10,204 nt of DNA. Source: a virus. The first letter of the stretch is position 1. Every line of letters begins with the position of its first letter. The translations under genes and the position numbers were made by a program. This document shows, one piece after another, positions 3,486 to 8,301 of this stretch. Under the pieces are notes generated by a model. It ran no database searches, had not been told where the DNA came from, and saw nothing but the letters and a program-made list of their open reading frames with translations. The DNA is taken from the UHGV virus genome UHGV-0144897; one strand, 5' to 3'.

Positions 3486-3559
3486 TTGAACTGTAAGTAC
3501 ATATTATGTCGGAACTGATAGTTCACGCAAGTGATATTATGATTGAACCTATGGTTCAA
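3486..3559. promoter_or_regulatory. OR-like control region: three TGAAC/GTTCA-type operator dyads with divergent PR-like and PRM-like promoters
   Basis: Site A TTGAACTGTAAGTACAT (3486..3502); site B GAACT-GAT-AGTTC (3512..3524); site C TTGAACC-TAT-GGTTCAA (3543..3559). Minus-strand promoter: -35 TTGCGT (3530..3525), 16-bp spacer containing site B, -10 CATAAT (3508..3503). Plus-strand candidate: -35 CTGATA (3515..3520), -10 TATGAT (3538..3543). Site A recurs near-identically in the pL-like region. Confidence 0.45.
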
Positions 3560-4261
3560 GAAGAAAAAGCGCGTACAGAGTTTTCCCAACGGCTAGCGCT
3601 GGCCTGTGATAAAGCTGGTTTACCTGCTCATGGTCGTCAGGCTGAAATTGCAAAGCGAATGAAGCTAACACCAAAAGCAGTAAGCAAGTGGTTCAATGGG
3701 GAGGCTATTCCAAGACGTGGCAAGCTGCAGGAACTGGCGGCTATAATTGGCACATCCTCGTCTTACCTATTAGGCGATAGTGCAGCAGATGGCATATCTG
3801 AAGGGCATATGGCAATGAGGGACGATTCTTTCCGTGTAGACGTTTTTGATATTCAAGCTAGCGCTGGGCAAGGAATTCTTGTGCGAGATGAGTTCATTGA
3901 AACAATCAGATCCATAGAGTATTCAACCGAAGAGGCTCGCGCCGTATTTGGTGGGCGCCCAGCTGACCACATAAAAATGATTGCCGTGAATGGCGATTCT
4001 ATGTCTGGCACGTTCGAGCCGAGAGACCAGATCTTCGTCGACGTGAGCATCGACTGCTTTGACGGTGACGGCATATACATTTTCGTTCTGGACAATGATC
4101 TCTACATAAAGCGCCTTCAAAAGCAGCACAAAAAATTAGCTGTGATTTCAGACAACAAAAAATATGAGACCTGGTATATCGAGGATGGTGATTTTTCATC
4201 TCTTCGGATCTGCGCGAAGGTCTTGGTAAGCCAATCTAGAGCATATAGATTTCATAGCTGA
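3506..4261 (+). CDS. cI-like prophage repressor (N-terminal HTH, C-terminal S24/LexA-type autopeptidase)
   Basis: ORF-track 251 aa. HTH GRQAEIAKRMKLTPKAVSKWFNGEAIP resembles the lambda cI recognition region. S24 motifs AVNGDSMSG (Ser) and LYIKRL (Lys). No SD before any candidate ATG (3506, 3539, 3551); start may be leaderless at 3551, inside dyad C. Confidence 0.9.
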   Translation: MSELIVHASDIMIEPMVQEEKARTEFSQRLALACDKAGLPAHGRQAEIAKRMKLTPKAVSKWFNGEAIPRRGKLQELAAIIGTSSSYLLGDSAADGISEGHMAMRDDSFRVDVFDIQASAGQGILVRDEFIETIRSIEYSTEEARAVFGGRPADHIKMIAVNGDSMSGTFEPRDQIFVDVSIDCFDGDGIYIFVLDNDLYIKRLQKQHKKLAVISDNKKYETWYIEDGDFSSLRICAKVLVSQSRAYRFHS

Positions 4262-5012: not shown

Positions 5013-5230
5013 CAATCCATCGAAACGAAACATCGACAGCTGAGCGAAGTTAGCCAGCGGCGGAGTGGAGTTAGATGACCGCTTAGAGCCGCCACTTGAA
5101 TTTCAGCAGGTGACGGGGAGCGCGAAGGGTGAAGCGGACGTGAGAGCGTTGGCGTGACCAGCTGGAACTAAAGGTTTACCAGCAGCTCTTTGCGAGGGGC
5201 TGACGGTAAACAAACAGAGAGGTGGAAATC

Positions 5231-5419
5231 ATGCTTGGGTGTGAAAAGTGCGACCACGGATTCGTGTTCACCAGATGCTGTTCTGGTCTTGCTGAAATGT
5301 GTGGATGCGGCGGAATGCCGGTTCAGGCCACTAATTGCAAGAACTGCAATCCAGAGAATAAAGAGCCGGATGACGCGGAGACAGAATCGCTTCTCCAGTA
5401 TGTCGAATGGGTCGATTGA
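5231..5419 (+). CDS. small Cys-rich protein (62 aa), putative zinc-binding; first gene of early-left operon
   Basis: Part of ORF-track 5222..5419 (GTG start). ATG 5231 has AGAGAGG 8 nt upstream. MLGCEKCDHGFVFTRCCSGLAEMCGCGGMPVQATNCKNCNPENKEPDDAETESLLQYVEWVD has 9 Cys in CxxC/CC/CxC arrangements and an acidic C-terminus. Confidence 0.6.
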   Translation: MLGCEKCDHGFVFTRCCSGLAEMCGCGGMPVQATNCKNCNPENKEPDDAETESLLQYVEWVD

Positions 5420-5431
5420 TCAGCATTTCTC

Positions 5432-5448
5432 CCGCATCAGCGGGTAAC
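5432..5448 (+). repeat. 17-nt intergenic hairpin element CCGCATCAGCGGGTAAC, copy 1
   Basis: Stem CCCGC (5431..5435) / GCGGG (5440..5444), loop ATCA. Ends exactly 16 nt before the ATG at 5465. Identical 17-mer at 5654..5670. Confidence 0.6.
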
Positions 5449-5464
5449 TAAGTGGAGAGTACGT

Positions 5465-5653
5465 ATGCACAAGTGTCAATTCTGTGGGTACTTTCTGGCA
5501 TCTGAAGAGATGCAGAGAATATCTGTAAACATGGTTGGCAGGCCTTACAACATCTGCATTCCATGCTCAGAAAAGTACAAAAAGAAAGGCCTGTGGGATT
5601 CGGCAAAAAACGATATCGACTGGAAAGCACTTCCATGCGTCGATGAGACATAA
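5465..5653 (+). CDS. small zinc-ribbon-like protein (62 aa)
   Basis: ORF-track 5465..5653. GGAGAG RBS. CQFCG...CIPC (two CxxC pairs) plus one further Cys. Confidence 0.6.
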   Translation: MHKCQFCGYFLASEEMQRISVNMVGRPYNICIPCSEKYKKKGLWDSAKNDIDWKALPCVDET

Positions 5654-5670
5654 CCGCATCAGCGGGTAAC
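5654..5670 (+). repeat. 17-nt intergenic hairpin element CCGCATCAGCGGGTAAC, copy 2
   Basis: Begins right after the TAA stop (5651..5653). Ends exactly 16 nt before the ATG at 5687. Identical to copy 1 at 5432..5448. Confidence 0.6.
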
Positions 5671-5686
5671 GACAGAGGAAAATTTC

Positions 5687-5905
5687 ATGTCTTACATCAC
5701 CGAAAACATCCACCTACTTTCAAACTTCAACGCTGATCCGGCAACTATCGCGAATATGAAATCGCTGGTATTGCCCTGGGCAAAGAAGCGCTTGAGTGAG
5801 TATCAAGAGCTATACGCATTGTGCCCTGAAGCGATATTCAGCGACGAAGTTGAAACGCTAAAAGCTGGCATCGCAGTTTGCGAACAAAGATTACAAGCCG
5901 CCTAA
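5687..5905 (+). CDS. hypothetical protein (72 aa)
   Basis: ORF-track 5687..5905. AGAGGAA RBS. The stop codon lies in the loop of the downstream terminator hairpin. Confidence 0.6.
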   Translation: MSYITENIHLLSNFNADPATIANMKSLVLPWAKKRLSEYQELYALCPEAIFSDEVETLKAGIAVCEQRLQAA

Positions 5906-5921
5906 CCAGCGGCTTTTTTAT
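5895..5921 (+). terminator. rho-independent terminator inside the early-left operon
   Basis: Stem AAGCCGC (5895..5901) / GCGGCTT (5909..5915), 7-nt loop containing the TAA stop of the 72-aa gene, followed by TTTTAT. Confidence 0.55.
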
Positions 5922-5947
5922 CGGCCACATAAAACAGGAGGATCGGT

Positions 5948-6586
5948 ATGGGCTCGGCAGCTACCGACATCATTCTTGAGAGCAAGAGAAGCCGAAAGAA
6001 AAATAAGGGGCCTGTCCACGGAGTTGGGATTATTGATGTTCCATTCAGTGTGCGCGGAACAGTAGATGGGAAAAAGATATACCACCGAGCCTTTAAGGTT
6101 TGGAACAGCATTTTGCAGCGATGCTATTACCCACCTATTCAAGCCAAGTATCCATCATACATAGGCTGCTCTGTTTCCCCTGAATGGCTGCTCTTCTCTG
6201 GTTTCCTTAAGTGGTGGAAAGCGAATTTTCATGAGGGCTGGGAAATCGATAAAGACCTCCTATTTCCTGGCAACAAGATCTACTCACCAGATAAATGCCT
6301 TTTCGTTCCATGCGATCTGAATAGTTTTGTAATCAGCCGAGAAGCAAAGCGCGGACCTTCTCCTATCGGAAGTACGTTTGATGCTCGTTATGGCGTTTAT
6401 AGGACAACTATCAGTCTTGGGAAAGGCCAAAAGCATTACTTGGGGTCGTTCGTTTGTCCAGACGAGGCATACACCGCCTGGCTCAGTGCAAAGTTGAAGC
6501 TTGCTGAGCGATTCAAACCAATCTGCGACGAGATACACCCTCAACTTTACGACAGCCTACTCACGAAAATTCGCTCGATTAAATGA
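5948..6586 (+). CDS. free-standing endonuclease-like protein with a C-terminal AP2-type DNA-binding domain (HNH/homing-endonuclease-associated type), 212 aa
   Basis: ORF-track 5948..6586. AGGAGG RBS 6 nt upstream. C-terminus ARYGVYRTTISLGKGQKHYLGSFVCPDEAYTAWLSAKLKLAE fits the AP2 signature (YxGV...GK...LGxF...EA..A). N-terminal W-x6-RC...Y-x-Y-x-G...W-x-x-F...F pattern recalls phage HNH-associated proteins. Family is recognition only. Confidence 0.75.
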   Translation: MGSAATDIILESKRSRKKNKGPVHGVGIIDVPFSVRGTVDGKKIYHRAFKVWNSILQRCYYPPIQAKYPSYIGCSVSPEWLLFSGFLKWWKANFHEGWEIDKDLLFPGNKIYSPDKCLFVPCDLNSFVISREAKRGPSPIGSTFDARYGVYRTTISLGKGQKHYLGSFVCPDEAYTAWLSAKLKLAERFKPICDEIHPQLYDSLLTKIRSIK

Positions 6587-6721
6587 ATTGCTAAACCGAC
6601 ACATGTGGTCGGCTTCGTTATGACAACTGGCGGCCATCCACCGCCCATTGAAACACTGAATAAATGCGTTGAAGTCTTGTATTAACCGTTCCGTTCGCCG
6701 CGATAAGGCCAAGAGGAAATC

Positions 6722-6850
6722 ATGGTAAACCAGCAGCAGATCAGAGAGGCCCAACGGCTCGCGTCGTTCGCGGTACTCCATCGCAATGCTCCGGCGTGGG
6801 AAGAAGCAAAGCGCCTTTACGCCGTCGCCATCGGGAGGACTCTTCACTGA
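6722..6850 (+). CDS. possible small ORF (42 aa), translationally coupled to the next gene
   Basis: Below the ORF-track size cutoff. ATG 6722 with AAGAGGA RBS 5 nt upstream. TGA stop (6848..6850) overlaps the ATG at 6850. MVNQQQIREAQRLASFAVLHRNAPAWEEAKRLYAVAIGRTLH. Confidence 0.35.
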   Translation: MVNQQQIREAQRLASFAVLHRNAPAWEEAKRLYAVAIGRTLH

Positions 6851-7047
6851 TGGAAACTTTATTCGCACTCGTCCTGACCGTAGCAATGACCAATGGTGAT
6901 TATCAGGATGTGATTCTCGGGGTTTATGACAGCCCGCAGGAATGCAGCCAGGCAGCTTCAGAGCAAAAAGTAACAGCCGAATGCTGGCCGGTAGAAAGCA
7001 TCCTCCGCAACGGCGAGTTCCCGGCGAAATCCATCGCGCAGCAGTAA
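6850..7047 (+). CDS. small protein (65 aa) with hydrophobic N-terminal segment
   Basis: Part of ORF-track 6796..7047. ATG 6850 has GGGAGGA 10 nt upstream. N-terminus METLFALVLTVAMTNG is signal-peptide or membrane-helix-like. Confidence 0.5.
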   Translation: METLFALVLTVAMTNGDYQDVILGVYDSPQECSQAASEQKVTAECWPVESILRNGEFPAKSIAQQ

Positions 7048-7116
7048 CCACCCTATTCAACCGATCGGCCTGGCATTACGCGGGCGGCCTTCGCACGCAC
7101 TTTTTAAGGAGTCTTT

Positions 7117-7512
7117 ATGCAACCTTACGAGCGATTAACCTCTGAACGTCTGGCAAGTTTGCCAGAAGGATCCCGACTAAAACTCGGCGGGCAAATTATC
7201 AAACTTACCGGGCGCGGGTCATTCACCAACAGTGCCGGGCGAACTGAGAACATGATCGAGTATGTCGATTCCCGTGGCGTTCCCGGTAGTTTTGCAGAAA
7301 GCATCATTCTCGACTCAGCTACCGAGTATCTCAGCTCTGTAATGTGTGCCTACTGCGGCTCGCGGCGCCATAAAAGCGATTGCACTGTTCAGACGGTATC
7401 GACCTACATGTCGACGTCACAAAAGCATTTCTGCACTGACAAAGGCTGCGCTGAGAAGTTCTTCCGCCAGAACCATTCCCGCGCCAAGACTTCACGGAGA
7501 ACGCGATGGTAA
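7117..7512 (+). CDS. hypothetical protein (131 aa) with C-terminal Ogr/Delta-like CxxC...CxxxxC zinc finger
   Basis: ORF-track 7117..7512. AAGGAG RBS 5 nt upstream. CAYCGSRRHKSDCTVQTVSTYMSTSQKHFCTDKGCAEKF recalls the P2 Ogr pattern (CPLC...YHQCQNVNCSATF), from memory. Confidence 0.7.
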   Translation: MQPYERLTSERLASLPEGSRLKLGGQIIKLTGRGSFTNSAGRTENMIEYVDSRGVPGSFAESIILDSATEYLSSVMCAYCGSRRHKSDCTVQTVSTYMSTSQKHFCTDKGCAEKFFRQNHSRAKTSRRTRW

Positions 7513-7644: not shown

Positions 7645-8301
7645 ATGTTGAGAGTTATTGATACCGAAACTACCAGCCTGGAAGGCAGTGTGCTGGAGAT
7701 TGCCAGCGTTGATATCGTCGACGGCGTTATTTGTAATCCCATGAGCGACTTTGTGAAGCCCACTGAAGCGATTAGCTTCGAGGCTATGGCTATCCACCAT
7801 ATCACTGAAGATATGGTCGCTGACGCCCCGCTGATTGGTGAGGTTATCGGTCGTTACCTTGGCGCGCAGGCTTACGTCGCTCACAACGCGAAGTTCGATA
7901 AATCGAAGCTACCACAAATCGACGCGCCGTGGATCTGCACCGCTAAGCTGGCCCGTGCTCTTCTCCCGGATCACCCAAGCCACAGTAACCAGTACCTGCG
8001 TTACAGCCTGGGCCTGAAACCTGAACTTCCGGAAGGCCTGTATGCGCACCGCGCGCTATATGACTGCTACGTCACTGCTGAATTGCTTCTGTACATGGGA
8101 CGCCTGGCGAAATGGACGTTTGGCGAAATGCGCGCCATTTCAAACAGCCCGTCACTGATTAAGGCGATCCGGTTCGGCAAGCACAAGGGCCTGACGTTTG
8201 AAGAAATTGCGAAGGTCGACCCTGGCTATCTCCGTTGGTTGTCCAGCAACAGCGACGACGAAGACATTCTCTTCACCATCAAACACTGGCTTAAGGGGTG
8301 A
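7645..8301 (+). CDS. DnaQ-family DEDDh 3'-5' exonuclease, ExoX-like (218 aa)
   Basis: ORF-track 7537..8301 begins with TTG. Preferred start is ATG 7645 with GGAGA RBS, so the protein starts at the Exo I motif MLRVIDTETT. Also YVAHNAKFD, HRALYDCYVTAELL and C-terminal FGKHKGLTFEEIAKVDPGYLRWL, matching my recollection of E. coli ExoX. Confidence 0.9.
   Translation: MLRVIDTETTSLEGSVLEIASVDIVDGVICNPMSDFVKPTEAISFEAMAIHHITEDMVADAPLIGEVIGRYLGAQAYVAHNAKFDKSKLPQIDAPWICTAKLARALLPDHPSHSNQYLRYSLGLKPELPEGLYAHRALYDCYVTAELLLYMGRLAKWTFGEMRAISNSPSLIKAIRFGKHKGLTFEEIAKVDPGYLRWLSSNSDDEDILFTIKHWLKG

Follow-up and report, generated by a model that had tools for sequence, protein, structure and literature searches.

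Among the endonuclease-like proteins of phages that carry an AP2 DNA-binding domain, the canonical HNH_3+AP2 type is the one for which Magnani et al. 2004 is reportedly the reference. In the classification of His-Me finger nucleases, this type (PF13392 plus PF00847) is placed in group 2, the I-HmuI-type group (PMC5714182). A second type, IPA-HNH, was described by Barth, Dunham and Seed in 2023 and is composed of an HNH-like N-terminal domain, diverged too far to be matched by the Pfam HNH_3 profile, and a C-terminal AP2 domain; its type members are gp59, gp115-116 and gp209 of phage ICP1, and 431 such genes were counted in 240 phages (PMC10448857). Here, we describe a gene of this second type in the virus genome UHGV-0144897, a metagenome contig (ENA ERZ1743331 NODE_378) of 10,204 nucleotides (10.2 kb), the whole of which was analysed and is referred to below as the window. 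The gene is part of a rare inserted cassette that occupies one fixed position in the early operon of a lambda-like prophage of Enterobacter, and its product is, judged by sequence similarity, a member of the known IPA-HNH family in an unusual setting, namely the tL1 region of a temperate lambdoid prophage. The features of the cassette and of its insertion site are as follows.

5948..6586, plus strand: coding sequence of 212 amino acids with an ATG start, IPA-HNH family member
5936..5941, plus strand: Shine-Dalgarno sequence AGGAGG, 6 nt 5' of the ATG, read from the sequence
Stem 5895-5915 with T-run 5914-5919, plus strand: intrinsic terminator of the upstream 72-aa gene (5687..5905), from a terminator scan
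5920..5931, plus strand: left-edge remnant ATCGGCCACATA, 5' foot of the resident hairpin, ATCGGCCATACATA empty-site allele
5932..6617, plus strand: inserted cassette of ~686 bp (5' untranslated region with ribosome-binding site, coding sequence and 3' hairpin), replacing ~23 bp of the resident hairpin
6368..6535, plus strand: AP2 DNA-binding domain (~aa 141-196), with strands at 142-145, 150-158 and 161-168, followed by a helix at 171-196
6596..6612, plus strand: 3' hairpin of the cassette, CCGAC-ACATGTG-GTCGG
6618..6735, plus strand: conserved right flank, tL1 region, the fixed right edge of every filled site
6618-6624, plus strand: TTATGAC, 3' foot of the resident hairpin
6629-6645, plus strand: GC-rich inverted repeat GGCGG-CCATCCA-CCGCC (-9.8 kcal/mol, z -2.97)

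Junctions with and without the gene were surveyed using the conserved right flank GGCGGCCATCCACCGCCCATT (window 6629-6649) as the anchor. In Escherichia coli HL15 (locus L003), window positions 5654-5919 and 6610-6691 are matched at 94-96% and are separated by 24 bp, compared with 690 bp in the window, and BLAST places the boundaries of the insert at 5919 and 6610. The same empty junction is found behind other upstream genes in phage HK225 and E. coli KL53, and in the HL15/HK225 type it is composed of a terminator, a CATACC hairpin, TTATGAC and GGCGGCCATCCACCGCC. The remnant ATCGGCCACATA on the left of the cassette matches the commonest empty allele of the viral contigs, ttttttATCGGCCATACATAGGCAGATTTTCGAGTCTGCCCATTTATGAC, which begins ATCGGCCATACATAGGCAGA and is found in 15 of the 95 empty viral contigs, in 20 anchor-bearing loci and in L025; the insert therefore extends from about 5932 to 6617. 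Filled sites are rare. Among the informative IMG/VR viral contigs 95 of 96 are empty and one is filled, all informative Enterobacter species-representative loci (10/10) are empty, and of the 122 E. coli genomes with the flank none has the gene. A second filled and empty pair is formed by L008 of Enterobacter cloacae and HK225, which have in common the end of the upstream gene, the terminator and CATACCTCAGTCGCTTC(T/A)CCGAGG; the filled site then continues with AGTAATTG, the gene and ATTGCTAAACCGACACATGTGGTCGGTTTTT, where HK225 has CGGCTTAG. The L008 allele is found again in L147 behind a third upstream gene. Two diverged alleles in three backgrounds have the identical right edge, and in every filled site this edge is made up of the cassette hairpin, a T-run, TTATGAC and the anchor. 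In the distant alleles L009-L012, homology to the window ends exactly at 6644, with the hairpin and inverted repeat, and the homologs of 60-63% identity, which come from E. cloacae, Salmonella and Kluyvera, are all located in pL operons. The T-run of the window copy, CTTCGTT, resembles the CTTAGTT of empty sites, which suggests that its right junction may be recombinant. A first-pass annotation of this DNA had proposed a possible selfish, mobile insertion and a comparison of syntenic prophages; the clean empty sites of HL15 and HK225 and the occupancy counts bear out the proposal, in that the gene is sporadic at one junction rather than uniformly present in relatives and an AP2 profile is matched within its family (see below).

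phi80, HK225 and the 122 E. coli genomes carry the right flank at 96-98% identity, and the phi80 record M11919 lists a ‘t-L1 regulatory signal terminator’ after gene N. Empty sites contain, between the upstream terminator and the element of the tL1 region, an RNA hairpin of ~39 nt (L003 3267-3305, L001 3741-3779 and L025), with feet CAUA...UAUG and a conserved loop UUY-NNN-GAG, in which 9 of 15 pairs have undergone compensatory double changes across 13 variants. This resident hairpin could be a processing, termination or antitermination signal; in a search of Rfam with the window junction and an intact empty site, no family came close to its gathering score. The hairpin is interrupted or replaced by the cassette, and 5920-5931 and 6618-6624 are what is left of the hairpin in the window. 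The inverted repeat, located 10 nt 3' of the insertion point, is invariant at the anchor loci and contains on its minus strand GCCGCC, the core of the plant AP2 ‘GCC-box’; more speculatively, it may be a candidate recognition site of the AP2 protein. An apparent mini-open reading frame (ORF) of 21 codons, MTTGGHPPPIETLNKCVEVLY, at 6620-6685 overlaps the conserved element, and a variant with an in-frame 15-nt deletion (…ISAEVLY) is common. A leader peptide with a polyproline stall (MTTGGHPPPI...) was considered for this ORF and rejected, as in several loci the frame is disrupted by indels of 1-2 nt located between the ATG and the repeat, and the C-terminus is free to vary. Probably no peptide is conserved here, the conserved part being the inverted repeat.

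The same data bear on whether the empty sites are derived, that is, whether an ancestral gene was repeatedly lost by deletion between short repeats with no mobility involved. The end of the cassette hairpin (GGTCGG TTTTT TTATGAC) does resemble the empty site (GAGGCGG CTTAG TTATGAC), and a deletion between GAGG and GTCGG microhomologies is conceivable. However, the intact hairpin of the empty site, with its compensated pairs, is a selected structure and not a deletion scar; empty alleles are far commoner and more diverse, with 55 distinct junction sequences at the anchor loci; phi80, HK225 and the 122 E. coli prophages all lack the gene; and the gene family is found across unrelated phage types. 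Repeated loss is, in our view, very improbable.

The gene had been described in the first-pass annotation as free-standing, with its own AGGAGG ribosome-binding site, directly following a terminator, bracketed by hairpins and ending at 6620. Both the ribosome-binding site, 6 nt before the ATG, and the preceding terminator are where they were said to be. The ORF is likewise real; 6620, though, is ~34 nt past the stop codon at 6584-6586. The bracketing holds in part. The upstream terminator folds convincingly (-10.6 kcal/mol, z -2.3 in folding against shuffled sequences), but it also abuts the empty sites of HL15, KL53 and many Enterobacter and viral loci and hence is part of the flanking module and not of the insert. 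The downstream hairpin is present and belongs to the cassette, but is weak and degraded in the window copy (-6.8 kcal/mol, z -0.69, with 49 of 200 shuffles folding equally well), where its T-run is eroded to CTTCGTT. It is credible only because homologous cassettes (L008, L009, L010, L012 and L147) keep a hairpin with a full T7 run at the same place, and the L008 version (-9.7 kcal/mol, z -2.1) is a proper terminator. Between 5400 and 7200, five terminator-like sites were found compared with 2.2 +/- 1.8 expected. The distance from the upstream T-run to the ATG is only 28 nt, and no promoter-like site was found 5' of the gene, the sole one in 5400-7200 beginning at 5976, within the coding sequence. 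Because the gene lacks a promoter of its own, it would be transcribed from pL by reading through the upstream terminator. A moron, that is, an autonomously expressed cargo gene, was rejected on the same lack of a promoter and because the 3' terminator found in relatives is eroded here. A 74-aa gene called in the source assembly on the minus strand (6557-6781) and a 167-aa ORF (6557-7060) overlap the element of the tL1 region and the downstream plus-strand genes; both calls are probably spurious.

The closest protein match to the ORF is 98% identical and comes from Enterobacter hormaechei. A database search returned at least 282 homologs of ~200 aa, most of them unnamed, and a translated search placed the family at 2620 positions in 1550 phage records. 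In BLASTP, the window protein matches ICP1 gp59 at E=2e-23, with 30% identity over aa 26-196. The two proteins have the signature W..RCY..C..EW..F..W..LDKD..GNKxY..C..N in common and both match phrog_953, 374, 2081, 30929, 3377 and 8790, and on these grounds the window protein is an IPA-HNH member. It also has the two further properties by which the family was described, an N-terminal domain not detected by Pfam HNH_3 and a C-terminal AP2 domain. The match to PHROGs families labelled ‘HNH endonuclease’ is strong (phrog_953, 3.8e-72).

The C-terminal half of the protein is an AP2 DNA-binding domain, which is confirmed at the level of the family by both profile and fold. The AlphaFold model is of high confidence (predicted local distance difference test score 94), a profile built from an alignment of 73 family members matches the AP2 structures of WRI1 (E=2e-6) and AtERF1, and PF00847 is matched by 18 of the 73 members. 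The window protein itself scores below the Pfam AP2 gathering threshold, so that the AP2 domain claimed for it by the first-pass annotation stands for the family rather than for this sequence on its own. The ratio of nonsynonymous to synonymous substitution rates is ~0.12-0.13 relative to the 60%-identical alleles, at a synonymous divergence near saturation; the protein is therefore under purifying selection and the gene is kept functional. At the DNA level, homology of the window gene to the L008/L147 allele begins only at 6182 and continues from there at 83.6% through a DUF1482 gene, whereas nucleotide similarity to that allele is absent from the 5' untranslated region and the first third of the gene. 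The gene is therefore a mosaic, with a recombination joint near codon 79. Elsewhere in the family, some representatives of 400-570 aa (P0254, P0255, P0260, P0262 and P0366) carry a tandem, double N-terminal domain, which suggests domain duplication or fused genes.

The reading that we favour, with a probability of about 0.5, is that of a mobile homing-type cassette, expressed from pL, whose product binds DNA via the AP2 domain and cuts or nicks it via a His-less beta-beta-alpha site. In this model, a unit made up of ribosome-binding site, coding sequence and its own terminator hairpin would have entered the pL operon of a phi80/HK225-like lambdoid Enterobacter prophage, inserting within the structured intergenic hairpin directly 5' of the GC-rich inverted repeat in the tL1 region. 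The AP2 domain would provide sequence recognition, and the D-K-D...N-K-x-Y...C...N unit of the N-terminal domain would form a divergent, His-Me-finger-like site that lacks the His and uses a loop Tyr in the manner of PacI. During co-infection or prophage induction, the protein would nick or cut cassette-free alleles near the junction, and repair of the cut allele would copy the cassette in, a process known as intronless homing. Catalysis, the target and homing are what we infer here; the gene itself, its AP2 domain and family membership, the polymorphism of filled and empty sites, the fixed right junction and purifying selection are established by the data above.

This domain (~aa 20-130) contains a beta-beta-alpha unit, with strands at 98-101 and 118-121 and a helix at 122-127, in which D101, K102, D103, N109, Y112, C117 and N125 are invariant in the 73-member alignment. 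The layout resembles the D-H...N...N of HNH_3, but a Lys (K102) occupies the position of the catalytic His. The D-K-D motif is found in 120 of 120 homologs, and over 154 copies of the domain (from 148 mutually diverse representatives) the seven positions are kept in almost all: D in 149, K in 149 of 153 and never His, D in 150, N in 149, Y in 153, C in 152 and N in 150. The domain family as a whole has 21,554 cluster representatives at E<=1e-3. D101, N109 and N125 align with D81, N90 and the Asn in the helix of HNH_3, a correspondence that derives from an alignment anchored by AP2. The invariant Y112 is placed in the loop that corresponds to the omega-loop of PacI, an enzyme without a catalytic His in which the omega-loop Tyr substitutes (PMC5714182). 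Two invariant acidic residues beside a beta-beta-alpha unit are hard to explain by DNA binding alone.

Several points weigh against the homing reading. At the end of strand 1, the position of a general-base His is taken by K102, and this His is absent family-wide. Neither Pfam (at E<=10) nor NCBIfam gives any match for the window protein, no HNH-family Pfam profile is matched at E<=0.01 by any of the 73 members, and the N-terminal domain, compared with the HNH_3 block by hhalign, reaches a probability of 1.1% with shallow and 1.0% with deep profiles. The canonical HNH_3+AP2 genes of the sister operons, by comparison, score 45-53 bits on PF13392, for which the gathering cut-off is 24.8 bits, and have an invariant D-H...N...N. 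Groups of His-Me fingers with neither the His nor a substitute for it are inactive DNA binders (PMC5714182). Nuclease and homing activity of IPA-HNH proteins was inferred from architecture in a study that does not mention the missing His (PMC10448857), and no member is known to cleave DNA or to home. The anchor does not differ in sequence between filled and empty alleles and so offers no obvious basis for immunity of a filled allele to cutting. Finally, the conserved flanks alone could be enough to spread the cassette by ordinary homologous recombination.

The endonuclease or HNH identity proposed in the first-pass annotation thus falls short of its own profile check, which returned AP2 and no HNH. 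An hhalign match of 97.4% between the family and canonical HNH_3-AP2 proteins, which covers the motif and the AP2 domain and aligns D101/K102/N109 to D81/H82/N90, was rejected as a sign of HNH homology, as it is driven by AP2 and tests of the N-terminal domain by itself give 1%. A single-sequence search of the PDB with the protein returned only noise, and a profile search with the N-terminal domain returned ferritin and dCK noise, PacI not being among the matches.

The missing His and the lack of profile similarity to HNH would fit a domesticated DNA binder that does not cut, in which the AP2 domain, together with a degenerate, nuclease-derived domain, serves as a site-specific regulator or anti-defence repressor. 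Such a protein would benefit the phage, for instance through the silencing of a gene of the host or of a competitor or through an effect on read-through at tL1, and would spread by recombination at module boundaries, for which the junction flanks, conserved across many phages, are sufficient. Strong purifying selection and the accessory placement in the pL operon of at least five different lambdoid prophages fit useful cargo, and there are precedents. CasPRs, which combine CapR with AP2, repress cas-gene transcription in phages (10.64898/2026.02.23.707548), PLE CapR and the plant AP2 factors were derived from the DNA-binding parts of homing endonucleases (PMC10448857), and Smad MH1 is a His-less His-Me finger with a function in DNA binding only (PMC5714182). 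In contrast, the invariant D101, D103, N109, Y112 and N125 look like a metal or active site and not like a relic, the family is often present in several copies in lytic phages of many hosts beside essential genes, as is typical of homing endonuclease genes (HEGs) (PMC10448857), and the cysteine signature of the CasPRs is absent. PADLOC gave no match either, anti-defence genes being outside its coverage. We regard a non-cutting binder as the main alternative, but put it well short of even odds. For the IPA-HNH family as a whole, we would tentatively suggest either a His-less catalytic variant that relies on the loop Tyr, the Lys or both, as in PacI, or a set of non-cutting, site-specific DNA binders.

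A further explanation draws on the other genes of the window, which carries the immunity region and the early region of a lambdoid prophage.

Minus strand: DnaC/IstB-like gene, Phage_rep_O gene, YdaT-family gene and cro
3506..4261, plus strand: cI
Plus strand: small accessory genes, a DnaQ/ExoX-like exonuclease gene (7645-8301) and more early-left genes

The cassette is located in the same operon as this exonuclease and genes of the recombination type (exonuclease, ATPase and SSB-like neighbours), and its product could be an active nuclease that serves the phage without homing, for example through degradation of host or competitor DNA, exclusion of related phages or an aid to recombination, with the patchy distribution reflecting pL mosaicism. 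The canonical HNH_3-AP2 genes at other positions in the sister operons are in line with such a role, and HNH proteins of the HK97 type are known to act with terminase and not in homing (Barth et al., PMC10448857). Yet a core role is hard to reconcile with an occupancy of ~1% at the junction, two diverged alleles have one fixed right edge, which suggests a site preference, and the AP2 domain points to a nuclease that acts at specific sequences and not in bulk. This explanation is therefore unlikely, and a homing-type cassette remains the account that we prefer.

Other members of these families are found nearby. The viral contig L107 has an empty tL1 junction and, ~9 kb away on the opposite strand (1090-1707, minus), a 39%-identical family member; different family members therefore use different sites in the same phage type. 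Canonical HNH_3+AP2 genes of 165-169 aa are present at L003 4007-4516, L009 8800-9306, L010 3635-4135 and L011 2134-2631, their positions vary within the pL operons, and in L009, L010 and L011 they share the operon with an IPA-HNH gene. In such prophages, the early-left operon serves generally as a landing zone for endonuclease-like genes linked to AP2. Upstream of the cassette, an exact 17-nt direct repeat, CCGCATCAGCGGGTAAC, composed of a small hairpin and a spacer, is found at 5432-5448 and 5654-5670, once behind the stop codon of each of two consecutive small genes (5222-5419 and 5465-5653). The motif recurs in HK225, KL53, HL15 and L025 and has the look of an intergenic linker that is reused where modules meet.

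The locus documents a presumed selfish gene both filled and empty at one defined junction, the tL1 of phi80-like phages, and the pair of junctions is a ready substrate for a homing or cleavage assay. Should IPA-HNH proteins be a His-less catalytic variant, the junction, with its covarying hairpin and GC-rich inverted repeat, would offer a defined natural target on which to test them; should they be non-cutting binders, their homing-like distribution, including the insertion at tL1, needs another explanation. A very large phage family is routinely annotated as ‘HNH endonuclease’ without the defining His or support from a curated profile, and annotation pipelines and HEG counts should treat it as unproven until one member has been assayed. 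The practical stakes are modest, as endonuclease-like free-standing genes at mosaic boundaries are already well known.

How the cassette compares with known systems can be summarized as follows. Like the seg and mob genes of T4-like phages, it lies between genes as a self-contained unit that has its own translation signals, is present in some and absent from other close relatives and is placed at a boundary of genetic exchange; Seg and Mob proteins differ in having recognisable GIY-YIG or HNH catalytic motifs and demonstrated cleavage and co-conversion. With CasPR and PLE CapR, which are documented as DNA binders and not cutters (10.64898/2026.02.23.707548; PMC10448857), it shares the status of a phage or prophage accessory gene and the combination of an AP2 domain and a second, Cys-containing DNA-binding module. 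However, CasPRs are found in Bacillota, have a CapR zinc finger (C33, C35, C37, C56 and C58) and lack the DKD...Y...N unit, whereas the window family has conserved cysteines C59, C74 and C117 and the beta-beta-alpha unit. Membership of the CasPRs was rejected on this cysteine pattern (no CxCxC...CxC), compared with the published description, and a functional analogy is kept. For catalysis without the His, the system of comparison is PacI (PDB 3m7k/3ldy), which is group 20 of the His-Me fingers. The canonical HNH_3+AP2 proteins are similar in having a beta-beta-alpha unit directly N-terminal to AP2 and are free-standing in the same pL operons (L003, L009, L010 and L011), but the window family has Lys for His, does not score on PF13392 and carries an extra N-terminal subdomain of ~75 aa that is rich in W, R, C and Y. 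ICP1 gp59 and the other IPA-HNH genes share with the window gene a free-standing, intergenic position, a patchy distribution and the two-domain architecture. Unlike it, they have been described mainly in lytic phages (ICP1, Barbaviruses and Flaumdraviruses) and near polymerase, ribonucleotide reductase and terminase genes, whereas the window copy is located at tL1, in the accessory region of the pL operon of a temperate lambdoid phage.

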